This document shows positions 3,412 to 45,340 of a stretch of 51,552 nt of DNA, in pieces (positions within the stretch are counted from its first letter, which is position 1; each line of letters begins with the position of its first letter). Origin of the DNA: Candidatus Micrarchaeota archaeon (GTDB taxonomy: Archaea; Micrarchaeota; Micrarchaeia; Anstonellales; Bilamarchaeaceae); assembly GCA_016926175.1 (NCBI GenBank), contig JAFGPA010000014.1, positions 1-51,552 on the forward strand, written 5' to 3'. Below the pieces are notes generated by a model. It was not told the DNA's origin and ran no database searches. It was given only the letters and a program-made list of their open reading frames with translations. The position numbers and the translations under genes are program-made.

Positions 3412-5136
3412 ATGCGCATTTCCCTGATTTTCCTGCTGCTGCTTTATTCCTGCTTTGCATTCACCATTGAATCATACGAAAATCATGCTGCAATTCTTGA
3501 AAACGGCGACGTCCTGATATATGAAAAAATCATTTTTGATCTTGACCAGCAGTACAATGAAGGCTTCAGGTCAATAAGGCCTGCTGAAATCAGTTCTCTT
3601 GATGATATTGTTGTAACTTCCGTGCTTGTTGACGGCAAGCCAAGCGGCTTCAGGAAGCAGATGTATGATGGCAACTATGAAATTGTCTGGACCGAAACCC
3701 GCCCCGGCACAAATACCGTTCAGCTCAACTATACTTTGAAAAACAAAATTGAGATATTTGATGATTTTGCGCGCATCTGCTATGAGCATTATGGCGCAAA
3801 CTGGGATGCTTCAACAAAACAATTCCGGGCAACAATGACCCTTCCGGAATCCTCCCGCAGCAAGGAAATCCATTTTGAGATCTATTCAGAAAAAAAGGGA
3901 AATGCATACCTGGATGATCTTTCCATTGTTGTTGAACTGGAGGGCGTGCCTCCAGGAAATTATGTGGGCGGCTGCTATCTTTTCGACAAGGGCATTCCTG
4001 GAAAAAGAATTGAAGGATCGGCCCTTGAAATCCTTGAAAACGAGCGCGAACTTTATGGCTCCGGGCCTGTAGTTGAACCATCTCCATCGCCATTGTTCTG
4101 CTGCGTTCCTGCATTCCTCCTTTCAGCAATATTTGCGCTTCACGCATATGTGAAGAGAAGGAAGCCGAAATACCAGGAATCCATACTCCCTCCGTCAGAT
4201 GACAATCCAATAGTTGCAGCAGTGCTTGTGAACAACGAAATCCTGGAAAAGAATGCGCTCGCAGCAATAATCCTTGATCTCATCCGTCTCAGGATCATTG
4301 ACATTATCGAACTCCATAAGGATGCCGTTTCAACAGAAAAGCAAAGGACAATACTCATGCTGAAAAAGCAGGAGACGCTCAGTGCCCATGAGCAGGCTGT
4401 GGTTGATATGATATTCTTTGAAAAGAAGGAGGTTGACCTTGATGAGCTTGCCAAAGAATTCAACAAGGTCAGTTCCAAAAGCGCTGCAGAGAAGCATCCT
4501 GTTTCAGAAAAATTCAGCGGGTTCCAGAAGTCACTGAAGGCATTACTTAATTCCACCGGCTCCGAGAAGCTGATAAAATCAAAGAACAACAAAACAGGGG
4601 TACTTGTATTCCCTGCATTCCTTTTCTTTGCAGGCGTGATATTCCTGGCTCCATTTTTCTTCCCCGATGATCTTACGGAACTGATATCTGCGGCAATCCT
4701 GCTCATTGCAAGCATCATTGCCTATTTGTTTGCAGCATTGTCCTACATTGCACCAACCCCTCCGAAAGGCAGCGAGGAGAAGTTTGAGAAATGGGATGCT
4801 TTCAGGCGCGGCCTGCAGTCAAGCAGGATAAAAGAATATCCTCCGTCATCTGTTGCGATATGGGACCGGATACTGGTATATGCAACTGCAATGGGCCTTG
4901 CAAAAAAAGTTGAAAAGCACTTCCCGGAACTTGATGATCTTACAAGGAAGCGCATGGAAAAGATGGAAGGAATCATGGCAAGTTCCTTTGTTTTCTATTC
5001 ATCTGCAACTTCACTCTCCAATCTTTCAAGGCACGGCAACAGGAGCGGATTTTCAAGAAGTTCTTCAGGAGGCTGGAGCTCAGGGGGCGGAGGCGGCTTC
5101 AGCGGAGGAAGCTCGGGAGGCGGAGGGTTCCGCTAG
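3412..5136 (+). CDS. DUF2207-family membrane protein
   Basis: N-terminal signal/TM, beta-rich ectodomain, central TMs, conserved W..F...L....W.R.LVYATAMGL region. Characteristic Gly/Ser tail SGGWSSGGGGGFSGGSSGGGGFR. Confidence 0.7.
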   Translation: MRISLIFLLLLYSCFAFTIESYENHAAILENGDVLIYEKIIFDLDQQYNEGFRSIRPAEISSLDDIVVTSVLVDGKPSGFRKQMYDGNYEIVWTETRPGTNTVQLNYTLKNKIEIFDDFARICYEHYGANWDASTKQFRATMTLPESSRSKEIHFEIYSEKKGNAYLDDLSIVVELEGVPPGNYVGGCYLFDKGIPGKRIEGSALEILENERELYGSGPVVEPSPSPLFCCVPAFLLSAIFALHAYVKRRKPKYQESILPPSDDNPIVAAVLVNNEILEKNALAAIILDLIRLRIIDIIELHKDAVSTEKQRTILMLKKQETLSAHEQAVVDMIFFEKKEVDLDELAKEFNKVSSKSAAEKHPVSEKFSGFQKSLKALLNSTGSEKLIKSKNNKTGVLVFPAFLFFAGVIFLAPFFFPDDLTELISAAILLIASIIAYLFAALSYIAPTPPKGSEEKFEKWDAFRRGLQSSRIKEYPPSSVAIWDRILVYATAMGLAKKVEKHFPELDDLTRKRMEKMEGIMASSFVFYSSATSLSNLSRHGNRSGFSRSSSGGWSSGGGGGFSGGSSGGGGFR

Positions 5137-17295: not shown

Positions 17296-17367
17296 ATTTA
17301 CACTCTCAAAGATTAGCCTTTTTATTCTTATATTCATAAGTATATTATTAAAAATAGGAGATAACTC
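17296..17367. promoter_or_regulatory. A/T-rich divergent intergenic region (aspS operon to the left, membrane-paralog array to the right) with TATA-like boxes and a GGAG ribosome-binding site
   Basis: cctttttattcttatattcataagtatattattaaaaataGGAGataactcATG. The GGAG is at 17357-17360, 7 nt before the ATG at 17368. Confidence 0.35.
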
Positions 17368-18642
17368 ATGGACTTCCTCCTTCCGATACTCATCGCAATG
17401 CCCCCGGCCGCCTTGTCATTCATAGGCGTATCCCTAATGCTCAGCGTGTTTATTGTGGCATTTGCATACATGATCTCATATTTTATGCAAAATCCCCAGC
17501 TTACTGCACTTGCAAAAGAGGAGCTCGCAGCACTTTTTTTCTCGGTTTTCATTATCATGTTCTGGTTTACTTTTGACACTTTTCTAAATTCTATTACTCT
17601 TAATCTTGTGGCCGCGAGCCTGCCTTCGGAATGGCAGGGTTTTGCAGCTGGCGGGGGCCAGATTGGGGGCCTTGCATCAAATCACATTGACCTTGCAATT
17701 GCCAGCATTGAAATAATGATCTCAAAGCTCAAGGATGTATATATCGATCTTTATCTTTATGAAGCGCTTATCGGGTTCCTTTCCACCATCAGCTTCCCGC
17801 TGGGATCTCCGGTTCCAGGACTCAATGTCATATCTTTTTCACTGGCGCCGTTTGTAGGGCTTACCCTTCTGAGCAATGCCCACACAGTTGTTGTCGAATC
17901 AGTGGGGTATCTTATTACCCTGATATGGGCAAAGGAATTCTTCCTTTTATTTGCAAGGGATGCAGTTCCGCTCTTTCTTCTGCCTTTTGGGATAGCCCTG
18001 AGGGCATTCCCATTCCTCAGAAGGACAGGGTCAAGCATAATCGCTCTTTCATTTGCATTCTACTTTGTGTTTCCCTTTGCACTGATACTTTCAAACTACC
18101 TGATATTCGATATCTACAAGCCGGCAGATTTCACTTATAATCCTTCATCGGCAAGTTTCTTTGGATCCGAAGCGACAATAGATGGTGCAGAGGACACAGT
18201 CGAACAGTCAAAGGACCCGACCAGCCATCTGCTTGGGGAGTTTGAAGCTCCAAGCATTGTGGAGACTGCACAGGGCGAAAGCGATAGTGAATGCTATGGG
18301 AACTATCTTACAAGGTTCTTCTGCAGTGCCAAGCATCTTGCAAATACTGCAGTTGACGCAGTAACCGGATTCATCAGCACAATCTGGAATATCTGGAAAT
18401 TCATGATGGGCATGACAGGGGATTTCTTCTTTACCGGCTTCAATAATCCGCTTATGCCTCCAAGCACTTCTGCAGGCCTTTACTATTTCATCATCCGTGA
18501 GCTGACAATATTAAGCCCATTCATAATACTTGTAATGTTTACCACGGTTCTTGAAATAATCATAACAGTCACAATGTACAGGAACGTATCCCTGCTGATC
18601 GGCGGTGAAGCCGAAATAATAGGACTTACAAAGATCGTGTAG
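17368..18642 (+). CDS. Uncharacterised polytopic membrane protein, array paralog 1 (subtype A)
   Basis: 424 aa, multiple hydrophobic helices. Block A QNPQLTALAKEEL. Block B LRAFPFLRRTGSSIIALSFAFYFVFP (from 17998). C-terminus GGEAEIIGLTKIV. Confidence 0.8.
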   Translation: MDFLLPILIAMPPAALSFIGVSLMLSVFIVAFAYMISYFMQNPQLTALAKEELAALFFSVFIIMFWFTFDTFLNSITLNLVAASLPSEWQGFAAGGGQIGGLASNHIDLAIASIEIMISKLKDVYIDLYLYEALIGFLSTISFPLGSPVPGLNVISFSLAPFVGLTLLSNAHTVVVESVGYLITLIWAKEFFLLFARDAVPLFLLPFGIALRAFPFLRRTGSSIIALSFAFYFVFPFALILSNYLIFDIYKPADFTYNPSSASFFGSEATIDGAEDTVEQSKDPTSHLLGEFEAPSIVETAQGESDSECYGNYLTRFFCSAKHLANTAVDAVTGFISTIWNIWKFMMGMTGDFFFTGFNNPLMPPSTSAGLYYFIIRELTILSPFIILVMFTTVLEIIITVTMYRNVSLLIGGEAEIIGLTKIV

Positions 18643-18644
18643 CC

Positions 18645-20159
18645 ATGAAGAAATTATTTTTGTTTTTGCTGACGGTTTCCATTGCGCTGGCGCAGGGCCC
18701 ATCAGAAATACTTATTGAACAGCTTTCCATAATCTATGCAATAGCCGGGGCCATGATAATGCTCATGGTTGTTCTTGCAGCAGCAGCCTATGTTATAGGA
18801 AACTTTTTTGGTGCCGAGACCAGGGCAAAAGCGACCGTGTGGGCGCAGGGAATGCTTGTTGCAGCCGGCATATCAGTTATGGCAATAGTGATGATGAATT
18901 TTATCGTTCCCGGTATCCTGCAGGGCGGATCGCAAGGTGATATAGAAGTGGTTACTCTTGCAGACCAGCTAAGGCAGCTTGGCCAGACCGTACTTGCAAG
19001 CCTGATAGTCCTGCTTGTTGTTCTTTCTGCAGTAGCATATGTTGTAGGGCAGGTTACCGGAGCAGAAACAAGGGCAAAGGCGACTGTATGGGCTACAAAC
19101 CTTCTTACCGGGGCCATTATCGCATCAGTAATCTATGCCCTGCTTTTCATGCTGCTCACAAATTTCAGGGGACTTCTTGCCGGAACACCCGTGGGCCAGT
19201 ATGCTGACGTCATAATAATAGTTGCATTTTTCGTATCTTTCTTCATTCTTATCACATACCTTCTCTCAAAAGTTTTCAAAATCCCTGAATGGGAGGCCTA
19301 TCTTAGCGTGGAGATGTCCAATCTTATATCCTCATTCTTTATTGTTGTTTTCGTGGTCGGACTGTTTGCTGCAGGGACTGCGGTTTCCCTTATGTTCGGC
19401 GCGGATCCAAGCCCGCCCAAGGCTGCAATAGCTTATCTGCGCAACGATGTAATCGAAAGCGTTCTCCAGGGCCTCATAGATGTTTACAAGATCCAGGCAT
19501 GCACCTCAATATTAAACACAATCAGCAGGAGAATAGGCGAATTTGTCCTTACATCCACCTACAAGGTCTTTCCCGGAATCGATACTTTTGTCAATATCAC
19601 CAGCATGCTTGCCATGGGGCTGGTTTCTGTTTATGCAAGCCTCTCGGTGCAGGTAGCGCTTCTTTATCTTGTGGATCAGACAATGGTGAATTTCATCCTT
19701 CCTGCAGGCCTTATCCTGCGGTTCTTCCCGCCTACCCGTGATGCAGGGGCATTCCTTATCTCGCTTGCCTTTGGCTTTCAGATAATATTTCCGACAACCT
19801 ATCTGCTGAACGGAATGATTTTCAATGAAATAGGCGCGACTGTCTATGAGTCGTCAGCCGCCACATTTGTTATACAGGATGTCTGCGGTCCTTTCAAATA
19901 TGGCCTTTACGGTGTTGTGATAAATCCAAGCGTCAATCCGGTCTTCAGCTTCTTTCCCGGCGGACAGGCTGCAGGAACTATACTTGCACAGATCTTCTCA
20001 GAAGGATTGCTGAATCTCATGACAATGGGCCAGTTCACGGTTTTCATGGAACAGATATCAAAGCTTTCACTGCTTTCACTGTTCCTTCCTGCGCTCTCGA
20101 TGCTTGTTACCATAGCTTTCATAAATGCTATGACCAAATTTATTGTTGGAAAGATGTGA
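18645..20159 (+). CDS. Uncharacterised polytopic membrane protein, array paralog 2 (subtype B), with signal-peptide-like N-terminus and duplicated two-helix module
   Basis: 504 aa. N-terminus MKKLFLFLLTVSIALAQG. GAETRAKATVWA occurs twice. Block B LRFFPPTRDAGAFLISLAFGFQIIFP (from 19716). Starts 2 nt after the paralog 1 stop. Confidence 0.8.
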   Translation: MKKLFLFLLTVSIALAQGPSEILIEQLSIIYAIAGAMIMLMVVLAAAAYVIGNFFGAETRAKATVWAQGMLVAAGISVMAIVMMNFIVPGILQGGSQGDIEVVTLADQLRQLGQTVLASLIVLLVVLSAVAYVVGQVTGAETRAKATVWATNLLTGAIIASVIYALLFMLLTNFRGLLAGTPVGQYADVIIIVAFFVSFFILITYLLSKVFKIPEWEAYLSVEMSNLISSFFIVVFVVGLFAAGTAVSLMFGADPSPPKAAIAYLRNDVIESVLQGLIDVYKIQACTSILNTISRRIGEFVLTSTYKVFPGIDTFVNITSMLAMGLVSVYASLSVQVALLYLVDQTMVNFILPAGLILRFFPPTRDAGAFLISLAFGFQIIFPTTYLLNGMIFNEIGATVYESSAATFVIQDVCGPFKYGLYGVVINPSVNPVFSFFPGGQAAGTILAQIFSEGLLNLMTMGQFTVFMEQISKLSLLSLFLPALSMLVTIAFINAMTKFIVGKM

Positions 20160-20160
20160 T

Positions 20161-21543
20161 ATGGCTACTGTACTGGATTTTTGGGGGGCATGGCTGCCTG
20201 TTGCCGGTGCTGCAATGGGACTTACAGTCGTAATCATATCCATTATCTGGATGCTTTCAGAACTCCTGCAGAATGACAAGATGAAGGGCTGGGCCAAGAT
20301 GGAGCTTGTTGAGGTTTTCTATTCTGCAATCATTCTTTCCATGGCAATTACCGGACTTCCTATAATTGACAATGTTATAAAGACTGCCCTTATAGGGGAT
20401 GGCGGCAGTGCAATGACCTGGGTGCAGTATGAAGTTGATGGAGCAGTACAGCCATGGCAGCTTACCAACATCTGCAATTTTCAGGATGACCGCATAGGAG
20501 CGGCAGAAACTTCGGTTTATCACGGCGTACAGTCCTGCCACATGCGGCTTGGCATATGGTATCTGCGGGAGATATTCGATGAGGCAAAAAGGTTTGCATT
20601 TGACATTTATCTCAGCTATATATTCACTTCCATGCTCGCAGAATTTACCATCAACATAGAATTCATTTTTGAAAAGGCAGGGTTCTTTACATTCACCCCC
20701 TGGAAGGGTTTCTTTACAATGGGCAATACAATAAAGGCACAGGTGTTTGACTGGGCCATAAAAATCATGATGATCACCAAATTCCAGGAAATCCTGCTGC
20801 GTTTCATTGCCGTTGCCCTGTTCCCCGCACTGTTTGTGATGGGAGTAATACTAAGGACATTTGCATTTACCAGAAGGCTTGGAGGTCTTCTTCTTGCCAT
20901 GGCACTGGCGCTTTATTTCTTTTATCCTGCTTTCTATGCATTCGGGGCAATAGTGATGATGGACATCAAGAATGATCCGGCTGTCCGCAATGCATGGCTC
21001 TCTCCTGACAATCCCGCCAACCCCGGAAACTACGATATTGATCCATTTACAGGGCCAGAGGATTACCCCAATCCGCCCATAGCAAATACTATGTACATGC
21101 AGGGCAACTTTTCCATGATAGGAGGTGACGGCAATTTCAATACTGAAGAAGCCTCGCGGAGCCTTGAACGGTATGAAGGCTATACTGATGCACAGTATTT
21201 CAATGCCCTGGAACAAAAGGAGGACGGCACCACATTCACATTCAATCTTGGGGACCGCACAGCCTATGAGCAGTCCACTGATGAAGAAAGAAAGGCGGCA
21301 TACCAGAATGCATATTCCAAAGGCCTGGAATGGTTTAATGACGTTTCAAAGGAAAACAAGTTTGACCGATTCGTCACATTTGCATGGGAGCCAAACGGGC
21401 CCATAGATACTCTTTCAAGAATCACATTCTGGTCATTGTTCTTCTCGTTTTTCAGTATAATAGGGACCATAGCGGTAATCCGGTCGCTGTCGATAACCTT
21501 CGGCGGTGACATTGAGATTGCAGGACTTACGAGGCTGATATGA
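20161..21543 (+). CDS. Uncharacterised polytopic membrane protein, array paralog 3 (subtype A)
   Basis: 460 aa from the ATG at 20161 (1 nt after the paralog 2 stop). Block A QNDKMKGWAKMEL. Block B LRTFAFTRRLGGLLLAMALALYFFYP (from 20851). C-terminus FGGDIEIAGLTRLI. Confidence 0.8.
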   Translation: MATVLDFWGAWLPVAGAAMGLTVVIISIIWMLSELLQNDKMKGWAKMELVEVFYSAIILSMAITGLPIIDNVIKTALIGDGGSAMTWVQYEVDGAVQPWQLTNICNFQDDRIGAAETSVYHGVQSCHMRLGIWYLREIFDEAKRFAFDIYLSYIFTSMLAEFTINIEFIFEKAGFFTFTPWKGFFTMGNTIKAQVFDWAIKIMMITKFQEILLRFIAVALFPALFVMGVILRTFAFTRRLGGLLLAMALALYFFYPAFYAFGAIVMMDIKNDPAVRNAWLSPDNPANPGNYDIDPFTGPEDYPNPPIANTMYMQGNFSMIGGDGNFNTEEASRSLERYEGYTDAQYFNALEQKEDGTTFTFNLGDRTAYEQSTDEERKAAYQNAYSKGLEWFNDVSKENKFDRFVTFAWEPNGPIDTLSRITFWSLFFSFFSIIGTIAVIRSLSITFGGDIEIAGLTRLI

Positions 21544-22757
21544 TGGGAAAATCTATCCTGCTGCCGCTTATTCTCCTTTTGCTTATGCCTTTTTCTTTTG
21601 CCGCTTCGCAGGGTGACATGGGCGATTTCTTTGATGAAACCGTTGACAGCATGGAAACACAGGGCCAGCTCTGGCTGGAAGGGCAGGCAGCCGGACTTGG
21701 AACTGGCGGGGCAGTATTCGGAAGCCTTCTTGAGACATTCAGCCCGTCACAGTGCGGCGATTCATGGATTACAACTACGAATATTTTCGGTACATGGATT
21801 GCACCAGTAGCACTGACGATAATGATAGTTGTCATAGGAATCGCAATTCTTTACATGGCAGGGCAGCTTTTCAGCTCCCCGAACCTGATTGCAATATCAA
21901 AGGAGGAGGCGTTCCAGCTTGGCCTTACTGTTTCCAAGCTCATAATAATCATAGCCGTGCTCAACTCCGGCGAACTCTGGTACAGAATCGCAAGCGCCGG
22001 CATTGCAGATCCAGTTTATGCAAACAACAATACCATGATCGATGCCTCCATGGCTTTTTCAAGGCTCATGGCAAAGGAAATGATCGACCACTATTCAATG
22101 CTTCTTATCTACAACATGGTGATCCACACTATATTCTCATCAACGATGTGGTTCGGCGTTACCTGGCGTGCCATGTATTCCTTCAATCTTGGCCCTGTGC
22201 TCAAACCGCTGATAGATATAGTCGGAAGCGCACTCCAGTTTTTATCGCTTGGAGTAAGCGAATGGATGCTGCACATAATAACATTGTGCATCCTGAAAAA
22301 ATGGGCCTGGGGGCTGTTTATCCCAGTCGGAATCCTGCTTCGTTCCATTCCCTATACGCGAGGGGGAGGGGAGGCTCTGCTATCCCTTACATTCGCCCTC
22401 ATACTTTTCTACCCTTTCATGTTTCTTTTTGATTATGAAGTCCACAAAGTCATGAAGTATAACCTTACTGATGCAAAACATGCAATGGGCGCATTCCTTG
22501 AAAAGAGCGGACTGCTTGCAGTTTTCGGAACAGTGCTTATAATGGTATTTCTTCTTGCAGGCGTATTTGTTCCGTTCTTCCTTGGCGGAGCCCTGTCTCT
22601 TGTATTTGAATTGATACGGAGTGCCGTCTATTATATAGTTATAATGAGCCTCCTATTGCCATTCCTGAACATTTTCATTACACTTACGGCAGCCAAAGAA
22701 ATGGCTAACTTCTCGAGAGTTGATGTGAACTTCCTCTCATTCCTGAAGATCATCTGA
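21540..22757 (+). CDS. Uncharacterised polytopic membrane protein, array paralog 4 (subtype B), signal-peptide-like N-terminus
   Basis: 405 aa. N-terminus MMGKSILLPLILLLLMPFSFAASQG. Block B LRSIPYTRGGGEALLSLTFALILFYP (from 22338). C-terminus FSRVDVNFLSFLKII. ATGA overlap with paralog 3. Confidence 0.8.
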   Translation: MMGKSILLPLILLLLMPFSFAASQGDMGDFFDETVDSMETQGQLWLEGQAAGLGTGGAVFGSLLETFSPSQCGDSWITTTNIFGTWIAPVALTIMIVVIGIAILYMAGQLFSSPNLIAISKEEAFQLGLTVSKLIIIIAVLNSGELWYRIASAGIADPVYANNNTMIDASMAFSRLMAKEMIDHYSMLLIYNMVIHTIFSSTMWFGVTWRAMYSFNLGPVLKPLIDIVGSALQFLSLGVSEWMLHIITLCILKKWAWGLFIPVGILLRSIPYTRGGGEALLSLTFALILFYPFMFLFDYEVHKVMKYNLTDAKHAMGAFLEKSGLLAVFGTVLIMVFLLAGVFVPFFLGGALSLVFELIRSAVYYIVIMSLLLPFLNIFITLTAAKEMANFSRVDVNFLSFLKII

Positions 22758-22766
22758 GGGCATTCC

Positions 22767-23858
22767 ATGGCACTTTGCACACCTGATTCAATTGTCGGAT
22801 ATGGCTGCGGCGGGAACGGCCTGGAATTCTTTGCGCTGTCTGCAGGTGCAGCCCTGGTAACATCGGCAGCCCTGCTTGCAGGCATGTATCTCTGGGCCAC
22901 ATTCTTCAGAAACCAGCAGATGGATGCTTTTGTGAAAACAGAGCTTTATGAGCTTTTCATTTCAGCCATTCTTGTGGTCATGCTTGGAATTGCGGTTGCT
23001 GCAATGGTAAATATAAAAGTCAGCACCATCATACCCCAGGCTCTCTGGCCTGAAGACATATCCTCAGATACGACAATATATGCGGCCAGCGGAATGTATT
23101 TTGAAAAAGTAGGGAATGACATGAAGGACTGGCTCAGGGTCAATTATTTCATCAACACATATGTTGACCAGGTGGCGTCTGTAACTCCATATACCCGGCC
23201 TCTGGGGGTTGGTCTTGTAGCATCTCCAATGGCAGGGCTTGCATCGCCAATCAAATCACTGCTTTACAATATGACTGTAGCGCTTTCCATTGCATTCATA
23301 ATAAATTCCGCACAGAGCCTGGTCTATGTTTTTGCATTGCAGGCATTCCTGAAATACTATCTTCCGCTGGGGATATTCTTCCGGTGCTTTACTCCAACAA
23401 GAAGGCTTGGAGGGGCACTGATAGGGGTTGCATGCGCATTCCTTTTTGTTTTCCCGGCGCTTATCACGCTTTCCTACAGCATGTTCTACAACAGGGACAG
23501 CGGCCCTCTGGTTTCCTTCGGAAGCGTTGTCCAGCAGTATTTCTTCACCGACACATCCACAGGAAGCTTTTGGGGGCATTTCAGGGATTTCTATCATTCA
23601 AAGTTCACAGATGTTGGGACAAGCGTTACAGATATCATGGCAGTGGGATTCGGAAGCATAGGAGAACTGTTCCAGAAGCTTCTGGGCAATATATTATTTG
23701 TTATAATGATGTTTCCAATCACCATCGTATCGATGGCATTTGCAATAGGATTTGTAATTCCTGCATTCAATATCCTTATATTCACAGCTGTCGCCAAGAA
23801 TCTCAGCAAAAGTTTTGGCGATGAGATTGATGTGACATCGCTTACGAGGCTGATATGA
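22767..23858 (+). CDS. Uncharacterised polytopic membrane protein, array paralog 5 (subtype A)
   Basis: 363 aa. Block A RNQQMDAFVKTEL. Block B FRCFTPTRRLGGALIGVACAFLFVFP (from 23379). C-terminus FGDEIDVTSLTRLI. Confidence 0.8.
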   Translation: MALCTPDSIVGYGCGGNGLEFFALSAGAALVTSAALLAGMYLWATFFRNQQMDAFVKTELYELFISAILVVMLGIAVAAMVNIKVSTIIPQALWPEDISSDTTIYAASGMYFEKVGNDMKDWLRVNYFINTYVDQVASVTPYTRPLGVGLVASPMAGLASPIKSLLYNMTVALSIAFIINSAQSLVYVFALQAFLKYYLPLGIFFRCFTPTRRLGGALIGVACAFLFVFPALITLSYSMFYNRDSGPLVSFGSVVQQYFFTDTSTGSFWGHFRDFYHSKFTDVGTSVTDIMAVGFGSIGELFQKLLGNILFVIMMFPITIVSMAFAIGFVIPAFNILIFTAVAKNLSKSFGDEIDVTSLTRLI

Positions 23859-24934
23859 TGGGTTTCGGATCAAGCTTTCTGAATACTGCGGATTTTACCA
23901 CTCTTTCCATGGCAGCCGCAGCCATCTCTGTCATAGCTTCATCCATGCTTATCATGATTTCAAGGCTGTTTGCACTAAAGGATCTTGAGCAGGTTGCAAA
24001 AACAGAATTCGTCTATGCAGCATCAACAGTCTTCATAGTCGTGATGGTTCTTGCCATTGTCAACGTTGGAGAGCGGGCCCTTGCAGCTCCGGATTCATCA
24101 CTTGCCAGAAGCCTTTACCTTATATCCTTCGGTTGCCCTGTTAACAGCATTGCCGTCTTTGATGCAAATACCCTGATCGACTGGATGAAACTTTATCTTG
24201 AAACTCCTGCAAAATGCGTGCAGTCATTCATGGTTGTTCTTTACGGCCTCAGCGTGCCTGTTGAGGCAATGGCATCAGTTTACATGGAAATATTCATGAG
24301 CGAGCATGCTTCCGGGTTCGGCGTGAAATGGATTGCAGAGCGTATAACAAACACAACCCAGTCGATGTCATTCTACATGTACATGTTTTACCTTCTTGTT
24401 CATGTCCTTAATTTTGTTAAGGGCTATGCAGGATTCTTCTTTTCCATAGGAGTGATACTGCGTGCATTTCCGCCTACGCGGGGAGGGGGGGCATACCTTA
24501 TGGCCATATCCTTCGGCCTTTATTTTGTCTTCCCGCTGGCATACATACTTGTGGCAACTATGGCGCTGCCGCCTTCTGATATAGTGGTTCCTGAAATGAC
24601 AACCGACATGGCAGGTTCCCAGGTCTGCCAGAGCAGGGACGGCAATTTCCAGTATATCTGCGCCCTGCCTGAAGTTACAAGCCCCCAGGACTACGGCTGC
24701 GGAGCATCCATCGGAAAAATGAACGACTTCCAGGCGCAGCTTGAGGAAAACGCGTCCATCCTTGAAAATATGTTCAATTCCAAGATCCTCAGCTTTACAA
24801 GGCATCTTATTTCTGCAATCTGCATACTGCCAATGATTTCCATGGTGATTCTGCTTACATTTGTGCTCAACGCAACAAATCTTTTTGGCGGCAACATACC
24901 TGAAATCGGAAGAGGGCTTGTGAAGCTCATCTAG
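23855..24934 (+). CDS. Uncharacterised polytopic membrane protein, array paralog 6 (subtype B)
   Basis: 359 aa. Block A LKDLEQVAKTEF. Block B LRAFPPTRGGGAYLMAISFGLYFVFP (from 24458). C-terminus FGGNIPEIGRGLVKLI. ATGA overlap with paralog 5. Confidence 0.8.
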   Translation: MMGFGSSFLNTADFTTLSMAAAAISVIASSMLIMISRLFALKDLEQVAKTEFVYAASTVFIVVMVLAIVNVGERALAAPDSSLARSLYLISFGCPVNSIAVFDANTLIDWMKLYLETPAKCVQSFMVVLYGLSVPVEAMASVYMEIFMSEHASGFGVKWIAERITNTTQSMSFYMYMFYLLVHVLNFVKGYAGFFFSIGVILRAFPPTRGGGAYLMAISFGLYFVFPLAYILVATMALPPSDIVVPEMTTDMAGSQVCQSRDGNFQYICALPEVTSPQDYGCGASIGKMNDFQAQLEENASILENMFNSKILSFTRHLISAICILPMISMVILLTFVLNATNLFGGNIPEIGRGLVKLI

Positions 24935-28463: not shown

Positions 28464-28551
28464 ACTACGACTTTTTTCATTTTGTGGCTAAAAAATGAAA
28501 AATACGTCCGGACATATGCCTTTTAAATGATTGCTTCTCAAATGGGATATC

Positions 28552-29253
28552 ATGAGAGCATTCATATTCTCTTTAGATGCCTTTATTGCCTTTACCCTTG
28601 CACTGGTGGCCATTTATTCGCTGATATTCTTTTCAAGCGTGCCATCTTCATACTACTACCTTTTGACACAGGGACACTTCCTTTCACGGGATGTGCTCAT
28701 GGCTTTGTCAACTACAGAATGTACTGATGACTATGGGATATGCGCAGCTTCAGGGTCAGTGCTTGACAATATAGCTTTCCAGAAAAACCAGACCTTCCAG
28801 CAGAATCTTATCATGAATACCGTAGGTGGTATGGTTCCTGACCAGTTTGGCTATCGCGTTGAGATAAGTTCTGATAACGGCAATACGTTTTCCCACATTT
28901 ATGATACGGCCGATAATGCAGATGATCCGCATGCAAAAAGAAGCAGTAAGCTTACCGTTTCCTCCCAGGTTGTTGCATTCGGATATTCAGGAAAAGTGCA
29001 CAAGCTTAATGAGTCGCCATACAACTATCTTTCCTGCAATGGGGGCGGCATAATTGACGAAGACCGGAATCTTATTTATTCAGGAGGTATGTCCGGCTGG
29101 GGCATAATAACCTGCGGAATTCTTGAACTGACCGGAGCCGGAGGAGAAACTGAAAGCATCAGCATAGGAAACATTCATCCGGATAATATTTTTGGAGGGG
29201 AAATAGTGCCATCATCAGATGTGAAAATTGTGAAATTCCTGGTATACATATAA
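28552..29253 (+). CDS. Pilin-like protein with class III (type IV prepilin-like) signal peptide
   Basis: MRA|FIFSLDAFIAFTLALVAIYSLIFF: short charged leader followed by a hydrophobic helix. Cys-containing ectodomain. TATA-like cttttaaatg about 25 nt upstream. Confidence 0.6.
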   Translation: MRAFIFSLDAFIAFTLALVAIYSLIFFSSVPSSYYYLLTQGHFLSRDVLMALSTTECTDDYGICAASGSVLDNIAFQKNQTFQQNLIMNTVGGMVPDQFGYRVEISSDNGNTFSHIYDTADNADDPHAKRSSKLTVSSQVVAFGYSGKVHKLNESPYNYLSCNGGGIIDEDRNLIYSGGMSGWGIITCGILELTGAGGETESISIGNIHPDNIFGGEIVPSSDVKIVKFLVYI

Positions 29254-29260
29254 GGTGATC

Positions 29261-30763
29261 ATGATGGACAAAAAAGGATTTTTATTCACCGTAACTGTCT
29301 TCCTTGTGCTCACCTATATCCTTCTTACCATATCGGTATGGGTAAAGGGCATTGAAGCCTCGGAAAGAACATTTGCGGATTTTTACAAGGAATCTACTGT
29401 TGAGCTTGCCATAGAGCAGATAACACCCGAAAAACTTGACAATGTCACCTACATAATAATGAACCGGAATCTTGCAAGGCTTAATGATCATGTTGTTTAT
29501 GGCCCTGTCAGGGATGCTGAAAGCATAGATCTTGTGCTGGGAGACCTGCTTGCCAACGGCTCCACCAACAGTGATTACTTTTTGGACCGGGGAATTCCTG
29601 ACGAATCAAATTCTTCCCTGGCTGCATGGGCATCAAACCTTAATGCTTCACTTCTTGCAATCGGCGTTTATATAAGCAACTTTGAAGTTTCCAGCTTTAC
29701 AGCATCGCAGAGCGATTACAGGCATTTCAATTATTCATTTAACATAACCCTTCATATGAAGGATTTCACAAACACATCTTCAGTTTCAAGGACATACTCC
29801 ATTGAAAATGAAATCGATATCAGCGGTTATGTTGATGCCGCACTTGCAAGAGAATCAGGCAAATATGGCCAGACAATCTACAGGCAATTCTTCTTCCATG
29901 ATTTCTATGGAAGCCCATCGGACATTGAGGCAAATGAAATCCGGGCAAACATATATGGCGGCCAGGGCTGGCTTTACGGTCCTGTTGCACTTGCAAACGG
30001 AACTGCAGATCATATACAGGAAGCGAGAAACATATTCCCTTCAAACCGGGAACAATATATCCTTGTAGGCACCTTTGACGAAATCAGAGGGCTTGGCCAG
30101 GAATTCTACGGGCAGTTCGGAGGCTACATAATAACAGATGCGCCTGAACAAAGTCCGGACAGCTGCGGCCTTGTTGAAAGCAATACCTTTAGTCCTGTGA
30201 TATGTGATGAAAGCCAGCTTGCAATAGGATTCCCGCGGCTGGACAAGCCATTCATAGTGGCCCCTGGATTCAGGGCTGAAAATGCAGAATTGTGCCCTCT
30301 CCTTGATTCAAGCGGAACCCTGTCAAGATGCCTGCTTTTCATAAACAGCTACGGGATTGATGAAGTTTCACAATCCCCGGAAAGAAAAAGATCTGCCGGT
30401 GATTCAGGTATTTATACTGTTGAAATAGTCCGTGACTATGTTATGTGCGGCTATTACACAAACAATGATGCTGCCCCTTCCTTCCTGCAGAGAATGCTTG
30501 ATGATTCCTATTCCCTTTCAAGTGAACACGGAATCGAGACATTTGTTATTGGCAATTACGCATCTGATGCAGAGGTTTTCGATACCCACAGCAGGCTTGA
30601 CAGGGAACTTTACCATGTTGTCGGGCTTAAGATCCGCGGACTTCCAGGATGCAAGAATGCCCAGTCATGCGACGGCAATGAAATTGTCGGAGTATTCGCT
30701 CTCAGTGAGGATCATCTTGACGATTACGGGCTTGAAGAAATAGCATGCGAGGGGTGCGACTAA
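29261..30763 (+). CDS. Large pilin-like / adhesin-like protein with class III signal peptide
   Basis: MMDKKG|FLFTVTVFLVLTYILL N-terminus. Ectodomain of about 470 aa with several N-x-S/T sites and a Cys-rich C-terminal third. A GTG at 29255 is also possible. Confidence 0.6.
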   Translation: MMDKKGFLFTVTVFLVLTYILLTISVWVKGIEASERTFADFYKESTVELAIEQITPEKLDNVTYIIMNRNLARLNDHVVYGPVRDAESIDLVLGDLLANGSTNSDYFLDRGIPDESNSSLAAWASNLNASLLAIGVYISNFEVSSFTASQSDYRHFNYSFNITLHMKDFTNTSSVSRTYSIENEIDISGYVDAALARESGKYGQTIYRQFFFHDFYGSPSDIEANEIRANIYGGQGWLYGPVALANGTADHIQEARNIFPSNREQYILVGTFDEIRGLGQEFYGQFGGYIITDAPEQSPDSCGLVESNTFSPVICDESQLAIGFPRLDKPFIVAPGFRAENAELCPLLDSSGTLSRCLLFINSYGIDEVSQSPERKRSAGDSGIYTVEIVRDYVMCGYYTNNDAAPSFLQRMLDDSYSLSSEHGIETFVIGNYASDAEVFDTHSRLDRELYHVVGLKIRGLPGCKNAQSCDGNEIVGVFALSEDHLDDYGLEEIACEGCD

Positions 30764-31176
30764 TGAAAGGACAATCATCGCTTGAATTGCTTGTTACAGT
30801 CGGAATAGTTATTGCATTCACGGTTCCTGTGTTGTTTTTGCTTTTATCAGCAACCTCTATGGGATATGACGATACTGCAAAGGCGCAGGCAGATGCATCT
30901 TCAAGGTCCCTTTCAGATACAATGAATTCCGTATATTCCCAGGGCCCAGGTGCAAAAAAAGTGGTTCTGCTTAATGTCCCGGCATCAACGCAGGAAATTT
31001 ATGCGGCAGATGGCGAAGTGGTTGTAACAATAAAAACAGGAGCAGGCGAATTCAATGCAGCTTCCCCGACAATTGCCCGGATAAGCGGAGGTTCGCAGAC
31101 ACTTGGGGGCAAAACAGGACTTTTCACATTAACTGTTCAGACAAACGATCAAGGAAAGGTGGAATTAATTGAGTAG
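30763..31176 (+). CDS. Type IV pilin-like protein (class III signal peptide, Glu at +5)
   Basis: MKG|QSSLELLVTVGIVIAFTVPVLFLLL. TAATG overlap with the upstream stop. Confidence 0.7.
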   Translation: MKGQSSLELLVTVGIVIAFTVPVLFLLLSATSMGYDDTAKAQADASSRSLSDTMNSVYSQGPGAKKVVLLNVPASTQEIYAADGEVVVTIKTGAGEFNAASPTIARISGGSQTLGGKTGLFTLTVQTNDQGKVELIE

Positions 31177-31615
31177 GGGACAGGTAGCAACTGAATTCAT
31201 GGTATATACCGCAGTTTTCATGTTTGTGGCAATTGCAGCATTCCTCATCGTGAATCAGCTGCAGACAAACGAAATTCCTTTGCAGCAAAACAAGGTTGCA
31301 AGGGAAATTGGCGAAGGATTCGCTACCGTAACCACGCTCTCTGTGAAAGGCGGGGAAGGATTTTCATACAAGTACGGCGTTCAAAGGACAATCTTCAATA
31401 TTCCATACACCGTGCATTTCCTTGAAAGCAACGTTATCATACTTGAATGGGAAGGGAGCTATGGAAATTACAGTGCATCCTATGACATTCCGCCCTATAA
31501 TTACAGGTTTGAAGGATGCCTGTCTGACAGGAAGTTTGTGAGCAATGAGTGCTCAAGCACATTAATGTTTGAAAATGATGGTGAGTATCTTACCATAACC
31601 CAGGTGAATCAATGA
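31169..31615 (+). CDS. Type IV pilin-like protein (class III signal peptide, Glu at +5)
   Basis: MSRG|QVATEFMVYTAVFMFVAIAAFLIV. TTG start overlapping the upstream gene by 8 nt. Confidence 0.65.
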   Translation: MSRGQVATEFMVYTAVFMFVAIAAFLIVNQLQTNEIPLQQNKVAREIGEGFATVTTLSVKGGEGFSYKYGVQRTIFNIPYTVHFLESNVIILEWEGSYGNYSASYDIPPYNYRFEGCLSDRKFVSNECSSTLMFENDGEYLTITQVNQ

Positions 31616-32097
31616 AAGGACAATATTTCAGTTTTGATGCAATTATCGCTTCGGTGATATTCGTTTTGGCACTTGTTGCCCTCTTGTCATACTGGCACAG
31701 CGTAATGTCTTTCCTGGAGTTCCAGAATGACGCTCTTTCAAAGGATGCCGTAAAAATTTCAAACAACCTCTTCATGCCGTCTGCACCGTCATCCGAGTGC
31801 AACAGAATAGAAAGGCTTGGTTTTGCCAACAGCTGGAACGACAAAAAGCTCAATGAGTCGATACTTACATGCGCAGCAGGTAAAAATATGGAATGGCTGA
31901 AGAACAGGACCGGTGCGTCTTATGATCTTTCCATAAAAGTGGAAAATCTTGCCGACAACTCAGTAAGAGTTATTGGAGGATCTCCGGAGGATGTGCAAAA
32001 TGCCTATGAAGTTGCCAAGCTCAGGCGGCTTGCAACTGTTCAGAAGGCAAACGGAGAAACATACCTGGCTACAGTTGACATCAGCATATACAGATGA
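31612..32097 (+). CDS. Pilin-like protein with class III signal peptide
   Basis: MKG|QYFSFDAIIASVIFVLALVALL, sharing the FS(L/F)DA(F/I)IA motif with the 28552 gene. ATGA overlap with the upstream gene. Confidence 0.65.
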   Translation: MKGQYFSFDAIIASVIFVLALVALLSYWHSVMSFLEFQNDALSKDAVKISNNLFMPSAPSSECNRIERLGFANSWNDKKLNESILTCAAGKNMEWLKNRTGASYDLSIKVENLADNSVRVIGGSPEDVQNAYEVAKLRRLATVQKANGETYLATVDISIYR

Positions 32098-32202: not shown

Positions 32203-32673
32203 TCAGGATGATTCTGCGGTGCAGCACCTGAGATAGTCCATGACTTCCCAGTTGCTTCTTGATTTTGCATCATCAAGAGCCGATCTGCCCCTAAAATCCC
32301 TTGCATTTATATCTGCGCCTGCTGAAACCAATTTTCTTACGGCTTCAAGTCTGCCATATCTTGCGGCATTCATGAGAGCCGTTTTTCCATAGCAGTCTGT
32401 TGCATTCACACAAGCGCCTGCGCCTATCAGCACATCCATGCACCTGAGCTTTCCAAAAAGAGAAGCCTTCATCAGGTGTGTTTCTCCCATGTAATTTCCA
32501 TTGGGATCTATTGCCTTCTTCCTTATAAGTTCTGACAATCTTTCTGCATTGTCATCCAATATTATCGCTTTTATTTCATGGCAGACATTCATGAGAATTT
32601 CATCAGTTTTTGGTTTTATGGAGTTGTTAATTTTTACTGCACTGGATTCCGGTGATCTTGTCTTTGCTCTCAT
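32203..32673 (-). CDS. Ankyrin-repeat protein (about 3-4 repeats)
   Basis: GETHLMKASLFGKLRCMDVLIGAGACVNATDCYGKTALMNAARYGRLEAVRKLVSAGADINARDFRGRSALDDA matches the ANK consensus (G-TALM-A---G-------L---GA--N). Confidence 0.85.
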   Translation of the reverse strand: MRAKTRSPESSAVKINNSIKPKTDEILMNVCHEIKAIILDDNAERLSELIRKKAIDPNGNYMGETHLMKASLFGKLRCMDVLIGAGACVNATDCYGKTALMNAARYGRLEAVRKLVSAGADINARDFRGRSALDDAKSRSNWEVMDYLRCCTAESS

Positions 32674-42850: not shown

Positions 42851-43399
42851 CTAATTTGCCTGCGTATTGCCTATCAAAGTTGCAATTGCAATTCTTTCAG
42901 GAGCACCCGGCACTTCATCCGAAAACTTATACTTTATTGCAAGCGCTCCCTTGAAATTGGAGCCTGCAGCAAGCATTACCGGGTTTCCGGCACCATCAAC
43001 GCATATTACTTCCTGCGCTATCTCTGCCCCTGTTGCACCTATGCTGATGCTGGATCCTGAAGGCATGGGCTTGTTTATCATCAGTCCATTGTCAAAATCC
43101 TCTCTTCTTATGTCTCCCGTTGCCTCAGATGAGCAGAGCACTCCGGTTATTATTACGGATTTGCCCTGCTGGTTGTCAAGCTGGAATATCAGTTTTACCT
43201 GGTTATTTTGATCAGAAACAAGCACGTGATTTTTGGTACTGCATCCGAATCCCGGCTGGTTAAACTGACATGTTTCAGGTGCCTGCAATGAAGGCAAAAC
43301 AACTGCAACGAGTATTGCGAGCACTATGAGTATTACAAACAGTGCAAGACCATATGTGATGAGGTATTCCATCACCGCCTGTCCTTTTTTGTGGTTCAT
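42851..43399 (-). CDS. Type IV pilin-like protein (class III signal peptide, Glu at +5); likely structural pilin of the adjacent assembly locus
   Basis: MNHKKG|QAVMEYLITYGLALFVILIVLAILVAVV, then a beta-rich ectodomain of about 140 aa. Last gene of the minus-strand operon. Confidence 0.75.
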   Translation of the reverse strand: MNHKKGQAVMEYLITYGLALFVILIVLAILVAVVLPSLQAPETCQFNQPGFGCSTKNHVLVSDQNNQVKLIFQLDNQQGKSVIITGVLCSSEATGDIRREDFDNGLMINKPMPSGSSISIGATGAEIAQEVICVDGAGNPVMLAAGSNFKGALAIKYKFSDEVPGAPERIAIATLIGNTQAN

Positions 43400-43410
43400 A
43401 TTTCAACACC

Positions 43411-44454
43411 TTATGCTATTGCGCTAAAAAACGCATCTACAATGCTGGTTACAAAGAAGTAAACAACATATGATAATATTAATACAAACGGGAAGTATTT
43501 CATTCCCTGGCCCTTTGAGCCGGTTCTGATGGCACTGACTATGAATGATGATATAAGTGCCGTAACAAATATCGTTGGAATTGAAAACCAGAAGAAATCA
43601 GAAGAGCTTATCACAGGCGCACCTGCAAATCCTCCGAATGATGAGAACGGGGTTCCGCCAAGCCCGGATGTTTCAGGTATGATGTTCTCAAAAACCTGTA
43701 TAAGTTTGGCAGCTACTGCAAAAAGGAACGGGGTTCCGGCAATGGCAGCGAACAAAACAAAAATCTCATAAAGGACAAGCGATGCCGCTATCTCCTTTTT
43801 CATAATTATGGTATTCCTGACGTCATCAGAAGTCCTTTCAAGGACATCAGTCAGCTCGCCTCCAGTTGCAGAAGCCTGCTTGAGAAGCATTATTGTTCTT
43901 TTGAAAACCCTTGAATCAAACCGCATGGCAAGCTTGTCCAGCGTATGCTCAAGCGTTTCGCCGCTGAAAGAGCTTTTCACTATTGCCTTTACTTCATCGG
44001 AAAGCACGCCGAATTCAGGCTTTGCAGAATACCACATGGCCTGGTCAAGCGCCATTCCTGCCTTGATATTTGATGCGACCAGCGTGAGGAAATCCGGCAA
44101 TGCAGTTTCAAGCTTGTTTCTTCTGTTTTCTGCATTCATCAGCAGATATGTGGACAGCAGCGCCATTGTTGACAGGTAAACAAATACAAATGAGAATGCC
44201 AGTGCAGCGGCCGCAAACACCGGAAACGGCAGTTCAAATGAAATTATTTCTGTGACTGCATTATATACGGGCGGATAGAAAAGTATCAGCAAAGTGAGAA
44301 AAACTGTTGCAACTATAGCATTCAGCGCTACATAGCCTGCAAATGAGTCTGCAGGCATGTTAATCCCTGCTATGTTGATTTCTTTTTCAAGGTTCTTGAT
44401 CCGGGTTCTTGTAAAGAAAAGCCTTCCAGCGCTTTCAAACATTGTATCTGTCAT
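43411..44454 (-). CDS. Type IV filament platform protein, single T2SSF domain (TadC/FlaJ-like)
   Basis: LPDFLTLVASNIKAGMALDQAM...LDKLAMRF...LLKQASATGGELTDVLERTSDDVR, flanked by TM helices. Confidence 0.78.
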   Translation of the reverse strand: MTDTMFESAGRLFFTRTRIKNLEKEINIAGINMPADSFAGYVALNAIVATVFLTLLILFYPPVYNAVTEIISFELPFPVFAAAALAFSFVFVYLSTMALLSTYLLMNAENRRNKLETALPDFLTLVASNIKAGMALDQAMWYSAKPEFGVLSDEVKAIVKSSFSGETLEHTLDKLAMRFDSRVFKRTIMLLKQASATGGELTDVLERTSDDVRNTIIMKKEIAASLVLYEIFVLFAAIAGTPFLFAVAAKLIQVFENIIPETSGLGGTPFSSFGGFAGAPVISSSDFFWFSIPTIFVTALISSFIVSAIRTGSKGQGMKYFPFVLILSYVVYFFVTSIVDAFFSAIA

Positions 44455-44463
44455 TTTTACACC

Positions 44464-45339
44464 TCAGATAAGATATTTCGGCCTGGAGCTTTCTATGAAG
44501 CCCAAAAACAGGAACTGTATGAGTGCGATCATCACGAATACTACAAGCAGCAGACCGGAAGAAAATCCGAAGCTTCCTCCGCTTATGGCTGCTACTATCA
44601 CTGTTGCAAGGACTACTCCCAGAGACGGAACTATTATTCCGAATACCATGTAGAACATTACTATCGGAGTGAGCTTGTGGCTGTATTCCTTGAGGGAAAT
44701 AAGCTGCTCTTTTGAAATCTGGTCAAGGACACTTTCAAGTGAGTCGCCTATATCAGCTCCGCTTGAAAGGGCATTGGATATCTGCATCAGCATTCTTGTG
44801 AAATATTTTGACGGGTTATACTGTACTACCTCTCTTATGGCCTGGGTTGTCGGGACACCAAGAACGATCCTGTCCACTATCTTTGCAAATTCCCTGCTTA
44901 CAGAGCCATAGCCTGCTGATGTGCCGACAAATGTGTCAAACAGGGGCATGCCGGATTTAAGTGCAATGACGATGTGCCTTCCTGCAAATACTATCTCATA
45001 GTCAAGCTCCTTTTCCCTTCTGATGCGGGCTGCTTCCGGATATAGCATCAGGTATGAGAAAATCAGCAATGGAATTCCTGCGAGAGGCACTATGAGCATG
45101 AGCAGGAACATCACAATGTCAGATGCAAGATTTCCAGCCATAGCATCAAAGAGCATTATGTATGTTAATGTTATCAGGCCTGCAGATATTAGAACCGTTG
45201 ATGAAACAACCTTTTCAAGGAATTCAACCGGGGCCTGGGGCATCTCAGCAAGCTTCAGTTTCTTCTTAAGCTCGGAATCTCGCGATGCCAGCACTTCGGC
45301 AACTGAAGTGAAAATTCCTTTTGGTCTTTTTTCGTTCAT
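44464..45339 (-). CDS. Type IV filament platform protein, single T2SSF domain (TadB-like)
   Basis: HIVIALKSGMPLFDTF...EFAKIVDRIVLGVPTTQAI...ISNALSSGADIGDSLESVLDQISKEQ with N- and C-terminal TM helices. Confidence 0.78.
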   Translation of the reverse strand: MNEKRPKGIFTSVAEVLASRDSELKKKLKLAEMPQAPVEFLEKVVSSTVLISAGLITLTYIMLFDAMAGNLASDIVMFLLMLIVPLAGIPLLIFSYLMLYPEAARIRREKELDYEIVFAGRHIVIALKSGMPLFDTFVGTSAGYGSVSREFAKIVDRIVLGVPTTQAIREVVQYNPSKYFTRMLMQISNALSSGADIGDSLESVLDQISKEQLISLKEYSHKLTPIVMFYMVFGIIVPSLGVVLATVIVAAISGGSFGFSSGLLLVVFVMIALIQFLFLGFIESSRPKYLI

Positions 45340-45340
45340 G

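Follow-up and report, generated by a model that had tools for sequence, protein, structure and literature searches.

Six tandem membrane-protein paralogs kept in fixed order across Micrarchaeia, candidate subunits of one envelope complex

Why should an archaeon encode six different versions of one membrane protein, end to end and in the same order from one lineage to the next? Micrarchaeota belong to the DPANN archaea, are ultra-small and for the most part uncultured, and little is known about how their envelopes are built or how they deal with other cells. The question is raised by a contig of Candidatus Micrarchaeota archaeon (assembly GCA_016926175.1, contig JAFGPA010000014.1), of which a stretch of 51,552 nucleotides was analysed in full (hereafter the window). 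Six consecutive plus-strand open reading frames (ORFs), P1 to P6, fill positions 17368-24934. An earlier note, made from the letters of the window, had described them as translationally coupled paralogs of an unrecognised polytopic membrane protein family, and its account of the ORFs, their lengths, their gaps and two overlaps proved accurate throughout. The genes are P1 (17368..18642, 424 amino acids), P2 (18645..20159, 504 amino acids), P3 (20161..21543, 460 amino acids when read from its ATG, with an alternative upstream TTG at 20143 giving 466), P4 (21540..22757, 405 amino acids), P5 (22767..23858, 363 amino acids) and P6 (23855..24934, 359 amino acids), the last being the best-conserved paralog. 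Intergenic gaps from P1 to P6 are +2, +1, -4, +9 and -4 nt, and the two negative values correspond to ATGA sequences in which the P3 stop overlaps the P4 start and the P5 stop overlaps the P6 start. Searches elsewhere in the window found neither further family members nor genes for the two-helix hairpin that is described below.

BLASTP comparisons among the six proteins produced collinear matches of 31-50 bits for every pair except P2-P3, for which only a non-collinear 17-bit match was obtained. When profiles were built from orthogroup alignments drawn from ~50 genomes and compared using hhalign, all 15 pairs were recovered with probabilities of 95-99.4% (E 2e-8 to 6e-22). Across 102 diverse members, invariant or near-invariant columns were observed at E52, G208, R212, R218, G221 and P236 (P1 numbering). 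The claim of paralogy, which had been left to stand or fall with a proper alignment, is therefore solid: judged by these sequence comparisons, P1 to P6 are true paralogs, related far beyond chance.

Three blocks had been reported as common to all six proteins. Two of them were found verbatim in every paralog. Block A, which contains E52, sits between transmembrane helices TM1 and TM2 (17488-17544 in P1, 19278-19334 in P2, 20269-20325 in P3, 21873-21929 in P4, 22908-22964 in P5 and 23972-24028 in P6). Block B (LRxFPxTRxxG) lies between TM3 and TM4 (17998-18075, 19716-19793, 20851-20928, 22338-22415, 23379-23456 and 24458-24535, respectively) and, together with TM4, holds the remaining five conserved positions. 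The third, the C-terminal Block C, could not be upheld for the whole set. It is present in P1 (GGEAEIIGLTKIV, 18601-18639), P3 (GGDIEIAGLTRLI, 21502-21540), P5 (GDEIDVTSLTRLI, 23817-23855) and P6 (GGNIPEIGRGLVKLI, 24887-24931), degenerate in P4 (RVDVNFLSFLKII, 22716-22754) and missing from P2, which ends ...TKFIVGKM here and lacks the block in all of its orthologs.

The C-termini nevertheless proved informative, as the best 149 family members split cleanly into six orthogroups, each with a C-terminus of its own. The signatures are GGExEIxGLTKxV for P1, GGDxEIAGLT[RH]LI for P3, xVDVNFxSFxKxI for P4, GEEIDVxxLTRLI for P5 and GNIPEIGRGLVKLI for P6, and P2 orthologs end in AFINAMTKFLVxKV, without the motif. 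Conservation of these orthogroup-specific tails reached 0.75-0.97, and no Block C-like tail was found on other proteins in the window or in ~65 array loci. At the nucleotide level, an identical 20-nt sequence, CTTACGAGGCTGATATGATG, occurs at 21524-21543 and 23839-23858, the P3/P4 and P5/P6 junctions. Within it, the codons for the C-terminal LTRLI and the stop appear to double as a Shine-Dalgarno (SD)-like GAGG and the ATGA stop/start overlap; since the same bases would specify the tail, the GAGG and the overlap, they are probably under dual constraint.

To what extent is the array shared? An exhaustive profile search returned 2,907 clusters at 50% identity (E<=1e-3), including 2,085 with E<=1e-10, and the taxonomic statements made here rest on the best 150 of these. 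Among them, all named members belong to Micrarchaeota/Micrarchaeia bar one, on a 1.9-kb contig labelled 'Parvarchaeota'. P6 homologs were 47-72% identical over their full length and annotated as hypothetical proteins, and those with a species name were all from Micrarchaeota. NCBI places the named species in the phylum Microcaldota, class Micrarchaeia, orders Anstonellales and Gugararchaeales. The survey of archaeal genomes for such arrays that the earlier note had proposed was carried out by running the P6 profile over a single genome from each GTDB species. It gave 57 loci, all from Micrarchaeota or archaeal metagenome-assembled genomes (MAGs), and the order P1-P2-P3-P4-P5-P6 was observed in every locus with enough flanking sequence (~50 of the 57). 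Each orthogroup contributes one member, with neither expansions nor losses found across deep lineages. Packing is tight (gaps of -4 to +12 nt) in the window and in loci L001, L003 and L066, and looser in Gugararchaeum; the stop-start overlaps are conserved.

Two deep lineages, Gugararchaeum (L065) and L066, retain the six orthogroups, their order and the tail signatures, even though all neighbouring genes differ (LeuRS, RtcB, Trm56 and TFIIE are among them) and L066 P1 is only ~26-30% identical to other members. A search outward from Gugararchaeum P1 identified only one more relative. Retention among unrelated neighbours indicates that the array is a self-contained, ancient and vertically inherited module. 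At 0.44-0.47, the array does not differ in GC content from its flanks and the rest of the window, and with vertical conservation in at least two orders of Micrarchaeia this bears out the view that the genes are not a recent import. Two further genomes deserve mention. In MAG JBDRIM01 the six-gene array occurs on two contigs (L026 and L042), with P6 proteins 56% and 48% identical to that of the window, so that either the genome has two arrays or the bin is mixed. The array is also present in a Micrarchaeota assembly with a 1.57-Mb record named 'chromosome: 1' (OY970229.1, L060); among DPANN archaea such a genome is large, and it would serve phyletic profiling well as a reference.

A core of five transmembrane helices (5-TM) was delineated from hydropathy together with AlphaFold2 models. 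The P6 model, computed with 73 orthologs, reached a predicted local distance difference test (pLDDT) score of 84 and a predicted TM-score (pTM) of 0.81; its helices are 36-46 residues long, and apart from a small sheet that bears Cys the fold is helical throughout. The P2 model was less confident (pLDDT 73.5 vs 84), and across the two models helices of 36-62 residues exceed the span of a bilayer. The statistics of orthologous sequences favour a topology with the N-terminus outside, five helices and the C-terminus inside. Per 100 residues, predicted inner segments contain 14.8 Lys and Arg vs 5.1 in outer loops, 0.23 vs 1.33 Cys and 0.22 vs 0.49 N-x-S/T sequons. Conservation is 0.81 in predicted inner segments vs 0.56 in outer loops, which are the least conserved regions (0.37-0.66), vary in length and are largest in P3. 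Placement of the N-termini outside receives independent support from signal peptides on P2 and P4, the latter followed by a ~60-amino-acid extracellular segment and then the core, and from the array of L066 (1847-7780), in which lipobox-like signal peptides (…LLGC, …LAGC, …FAGC) stand at the start of P1, P3, P4 and P5, suggesting from sequence that these four have lipid-anchored extracellular N-termini. Taken together, the topology statistics and the signal peptides place Blocks A and B and the tail in the cytoplasm, with the variable, Cys-bearing bulk of each protein facing outward.

P2 carries an additional element. Its signal peptide is followed by two modules, each a hairpin of two transmembrane helices (2-TM), ahead of the 5-TM core: module 1 (18711..18923, plus strand) has the loop GNFFGAETRAKATVWA between its helices and was identified by a hidden Markov model match of 83 bits and as an internal repeat, and module 2 (18963..19172, plus strand) has the loop GQVTGAETRAKATVWA and a match of 87 bits. 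The loop consensus is GxxxGAETRA[KR]ATVWA. Most genomes have two hairpins on P2 and L049 has a single one; elsewhere the module is fused once to P1 (L046, L047 and L054), or to P4 and P6 (L055). By a Rosetta-stone-type argument, a hairpin with alternative fusion partners suggests that the paralogs and the hairpin are part of one assembly.

The hairpin is also encoded by itself, as a highly conserved standalone protein of 100-150 amino acids (587 matches, the named ones all from Micrarchaeota, P0273-P0392), built from a signal peptide, a Cys, a helix, the near-invariant loop GQVMGAETRARASVWAT, a second helix and a C-terminal Cys. Four of its loci were inspected (L062, L063, L064 and L079, with the gene at 10001 in each). 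In three of the four, genes for a small KaiC-like ATPase (PF06745/DUF7504), a ~110-amino-acid protein and PmbA/TldD are syntenic with it, and in L079 the hairpin gene directly adjoins them; no VirB4-type or secretion ATPase was found beside the hairpin gene in any of the four loci. The hairpin profile aligned in register with the TM1-Block A-TM2 portion of a fusion-free core profile (hhalign P=6.9e-5 over 60 columns), compared with P=0.05-0.3 for controls using TM3-Block B-TM4 or reversed columns. This modest signal suggests that the hairpin is related to that part of the core.

Only two Pfam families matched standalone hairpins over their whole length: T4SS_pilin in 30 of 63 proteins and TrbC in 19 of 63. 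The best E-values were 3.5e-4 and 7.6e-4, respectively, with scores of 16-20 bits against cut-offs of 26.6 and 27.9 (PF04956, PF18895). Sub-threshold matches to Yip1 and Cyt_bd_II were as frequent, and hhalign of the hairpin against the single sequence of TrwL gave a probability of 2.6%, and membership of the VirB2 family is not claimed here.

Is the family itself one that is already known? P1 to P6 gave nothing above noise against Pfam-A, NCBIfam, PADLOC and PHROGs, and the same was true of the 102 diverse members when scanned singly against Pfam. Searches of PDB sequences returned noise for the P6 profile (dUTPase) and for standalone hairpins (KdpA and proteasome beta-7, with no pilin), and no match at all for the profile of the fused modules. 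Foldseek searches of the PDB using the P6 and P2 models yielded no match at E<0.2, with TM-scores of <=0.32, and the P6 model found nothing better than E=0.28 in BFVD, where a phage protein annotated as TrbL was among the non-significant matches. Literature searches found no description of the six-paralog family; intercellular nanotubes seen by electron cryotomography are assigned to the host, not to the Micrarchaeon, in the Microcaldus ARM-1 paper. Among the libraries tested, the family matches no recognised protein family or fold, in agreement with the earlier note.

Individual candidates were also tried and rejected. VirB6 and TrbL had been singled out beforehand as families whose recognition here would remove the novelty. 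A VirB6 profile of 13 sequences (R388 plus 12 other plasmids) matched each orthogroup profile and the family profile with an hhalign probability of <=0.6%, the family profile matched the single sequence of R388 TrwI at 0.1%, and the Pfam TrbL model (PF04610, E<=1) matched none of the 102 members. VirB6 chains appeared for the P6 model only at E 1.0-2.0 (7o3v_F, 7o3v_J, 8rt9_F and 8rtd_L; TMq 0.14-0.27, TM-scores <=0.32) and were absent from the top 50 Foldseek matches of the P2 model. The T2SSF model (PF00482) matched none of P1 to P6 or the 102 members, as had been anticipated, and as a positive control it recovered the platform genes of the window at 43411-44454 (7e-14) and 44464-45339 (3e-16). 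Bac_export_1/2/3, the models for FliP, FliQ and FliR, matched neither family members nor hairpins, and these proteins were absent from the top 50 Foldseek matches in the PDB. TTYH ranked first in Foldseek for both models, yet at E 0.2-0.5, with TM-scores of 0.14-0.21 and 12-14% identity, and the Pfam Tweety model matched neither P1 to P6 nor any of the 102 members.

The reading towards which we lean is that P1 to P6 are the subunits of a single, obligate hetero-oligomeric complex in the membrane, which would act as a conduit or scaffold of the envelope and, as far as seen, is specific to Micrarchaeia. Our confidence is high that there is a complex and low as to what exactly it does. A hetero-oligomer, as already proposed in the earlier note, is strongly suggested, rather than proven, by the invariant gene order, the tight coupling, the orthogroup-specific tails and the occurrence of the hairpin on different paralogs. 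The analysis shows that the proteins are paralogs of a new family, restricted in range as far as seen, that their order is invariant, that the hairpin is mobile and that charge, Cys content and conservation differ between the predicted inner and outer segments; physical co-assembly, like stoichiometry, ring shape and function, is deduced. Wells, Bergendahl and Marsh are said to have reported in 2016 that gene order within operons tends to track the assembly order of heteromeric complexes.

In the proposed complex, each subunit would consist of a 5-TM core, N-terminus outside and C-terminus inside, in which the cytoplasmic turns and the tail are best conserved, and two large, variable, Cys-bearing helical regions per subunit would project outward on the unusually long helices. 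The assembly would be ring-like or pseudo-helical, one copy of each paralog having its set place in it, and the cytoplasmic face and the orthogroup-specific tails would either set the contacts between neighbours or dock an unlinked cytoplasmic partner. The hairpin, fused or free, could add extra helical staves, and the outer helical bundles may form a stalk or conduit reaching beneath the S-layer. Its most likely role would be to act as a base, either translocon-like or for anchoring; an enzyme or a classical transporter is a less likely reading.

Several points weigh against this proposal. Co-assembly is deduced indirectly, and function is read from architecture and context only. A partner ATPase or soluble component was found neither in the operon nor reliably adjoining it in the loci examined. 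The large variable outer loops would also fit surface receptors that act independently, and the restriction to one lineage is judged from the best 150 of the 2,907 matches. Finally, the topology of P4 after TM4 is ambiguous, as an extra hydrophobic stretch could alter it.

A more ambitious version of the idea, which we consider improbable, is that the array encodes a new archaeal envelope machine, in which the six paralogs would form a pseudo-hexameric, possibly helical turn of long helical hairpins that serves as both gate and template for a tube or filament of the standalone hairpin protein and supports contact-dependent exchange with partner cells. Such a machine would be VirB6/VirB2-like or FliPQR-like in function and independent in origin. 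The resemblance to FliP-FliQ-FliR (SctRST) would be by analogy only: related hairpin subunits, a free 2-TM hairpin (FliQ) beside larger paralogs with hairpin-like units, and a protruding pseudo-hexameric helical conduit. Kuhlen et al. reportedly described this export gate in 2018 as such a conduit protruding from the membrane. In contrast, the array has no Bac_export match and no associated FlhA/FlhB or ATPase, and it belongs to another domain of life with another envelope.

The conserved residues admit a different function, that of a channel or uptake system of several subunits that might, for example, take in lipids, nucleotides or further phosphate-bearing compounds scavenged from a host, with the Block B arginines forming a ring as its cytoplasmic vestibule. 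Dependence on host metabolites is established for DPANN archaea, and the proteins are polytopic; in every paralog an E, two R and a G are invariant where the membrane meets the cytoplasm, and charged residues lie within or near TM2, TM3 and TM5. The best, non-significant fold neighbours point the same way, as TTYH1-3 share the layout of five helices with the N-terminus outside and the C-terminus inside, an extracellular bundle that extends the transmembrane helices, and disulfides. However, these are eukaryotic homo-oligomers and not six-paralog operons, and no similarity was found to the transporter families or folds tested (TM-score <=0.21 for TTYH). An ATPase, a binding protein or a transporter hallmark was likewise not found, six non-interchangeable paralogs would be unusual for a channel, and the arginines may simply be positive-inside determinants paired with the Block A glutamate. 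A channel or uptake system is an unlikely explanation of the array.

Could the array instead be a very divergent conduit related to type IV secretion systems (T4SS) or to the Ced system, with the paralogs as VirB6/CedA-type channel and the hairpin as VirB2/CedA1-type pilin, exchanging DNA or macromolecules with a host or partner? The standalone hairpin does look pilin-like: its signal peptide precedes two hydrophobic helices joined on the cytoplasmic side by a short, basic loop, and both ends, each with a Cys, are predicted outside. The two families that it matches over its whole length, below curated cut-offs as they are, belong to such pilins. The pairing of a polytopic, large-outer-loop protein with a small 2-TM hairpin seemingly related to its N-terminus is shared with T4SS, Ced and Ted, and the hairpin-core alignment mirrors the published relationship of the CedA N-terminus to CedA1 and of VirB6 to VirB2 (PMC9905601). 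Tandem arrays of VirB6 paralogs are reported for Rickettsiales (PMC7648143), which have reduced genomes, and helices extending beyond the membrane recall the R388 stalk. Chains of R388 TrwI/VirB6 come up repeatedly among the top Foldseek matches, none of them significant, and BFVD adds the TrbL-annotated phage protein. Moreover, Ced, Ted and VirB components lack mutual BLAST-level similarity (PMC9905601), so that failure to match them is weak evidence.

Against this stand the profile and fold comparisons with VirB6 and TrbL given above, and the search for an ATPase. No VirB4/CedB-family ATPase, the component that defines T4SS, Ced and Ted, was found in the window, nor among the neighbours of the array in L001, L003, L065 and L066 as annotated with Pfam. 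In ~60 further loci the flanking genes recognised by window-derived profiles were housekeeping genes, with no VirB4/CedB among them, the remaining ORFs there not having been scanned with Pfam; the negative covers ~65 loci of ~20 kb rather than whole genomes. In the four loci inspected, the standalone hairpin genes do not lie beside such an ATPase either, and below threshold the hairpin matches Yip1 and Cyt_bd_II equally often. The array sits in a core housekeeping context rather than on a mobile element, lacks nearby T4SS genes, and differs from T4SS in having six fixed, non-redundant paralogs and three cytoplasmic motifs with no T4SS counterpart. We hold a T4SS/Ced-like conduit to be rather unlikely.

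The proximity of pilin-like genes had led the earlier note to guess at a cell-surface or cell-contact role, rightly called unproven there. At 28531-32097 (plus strand), five genes encode proteins of 240, 502, 143, 148 and 161 amino acids, all five with N-termini resembling class III (type IV pilin-like) signal peptides; only the last matches Pfam, weakly (DUF7287). The array might accordingly be imagined as an accessory membrane platform, or as an anchor, that serves a type IV pilus-like filament of these proteins, and the cluster is indeed kept in many Micrarchaeota, usually ~3.5 kb downstream of the array. It lies <=10 kb from the array in at least 24 loci, and in the divergent genomes L052 and L053 it has moved to a place immediately upstream of P1 and is transcribed away from it. 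Yet the linkage is absent in L065, L066, L040, L048 and others, four unrelated housekeeping genes usually intervene, and the shared synteny may reflect collinear genomes. Known machines for type IV filaments depend on a T2SSE ATPase together with a T2SSF platform; in the window the two occur elsewhere, along with a pilin of their own (42.8-49.9 kb). Like P1 to P6, T2SSF/PilC/FlaJ proteins are polytopic and have pilin-like genes in their region of the genome, but they carry large cytoplasmic helical domains, whereas the large loops of P1 to P6 are predicted outside, and the family shows no resemblance to T2SSF. The link between the array and the pilins is weak, being lost in deep lineages, and a pilus platform is a doubtful explanation. 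Six independent surface receptors or adhesins, arisen by tandem duplication (as tandem paralog arrays often do) and diversified in outer loops that are indeed the least conserved regions and vary in length, are very unlikely, given one member per orthogroup in fixed order with no expansion or loss in deep lineages, conserved tails, retained stop-start overlaps and alternative hairpin fusions.

The surroundings of the array in the window are those of core genes. A putative operon promoter and ribosome-binding site at 17338..17367 (plus strand), read from the sequence and divergent from AspRS, comprises a short AT-rich region with the TATA-like stretch TATATTATTAAAAATA, followed at 8 nt from the P1 ATG by GGAG, which is SD-like. 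Genes for the split RNA polymerase subunits B'/B'' and A'/A'', L30e and NusA lie upstream, and SDR, SurE and AspRS are encoded on the minus strand immediately upstream of P1. Downstream are PIN_5, a Pab1020-type RNA ligase, CDP-archaeol synthase and an S49 peptidase. The separate type IV pilus-like locus (42851-49898, minus strand) contains, besides its two T2SSF genes, a pilin of 182 amino acids (KG|QAVMEY), a T2SSE ATPase of 507 amino acids and proteins of 454 and 561 amino acids of unknown function. Elsewhere in the window, positions 1-2000 have a GC content of 0.336 vs ~0.45 for the rest and carry an AbiEii-type toxin gene (721-1467) with an ORF of 184 amino acids upstream; by composition and content this may be a small mobile or toxin-antitoxin island. 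A 156-amino-acid ankyrin-repeat protein, unusual for archaea, is encoded at 32203-32673 (minus strand), and a DUF2207 membrane protein of 574 amino acids at 3412-5136 (plus strand).

The array thus represents a lineage-wide, strictly conserved six-subunit module whose confidently predicted fold matches nothing solved, which makes it a target for AlphaFold 3 (AF3) multimer modelling and metaproteomics, and its six-gene signature provides a clean phylogenetic marker for the lineage. Should the proteins be a very divergent VirB6/VirB2-like system without a linked VirB4, the range of T4SS-derived systems would extend into DPANN. If they instead form a conduit or the base of a filament, the array would constitute a new kind of archaeal surface machine.

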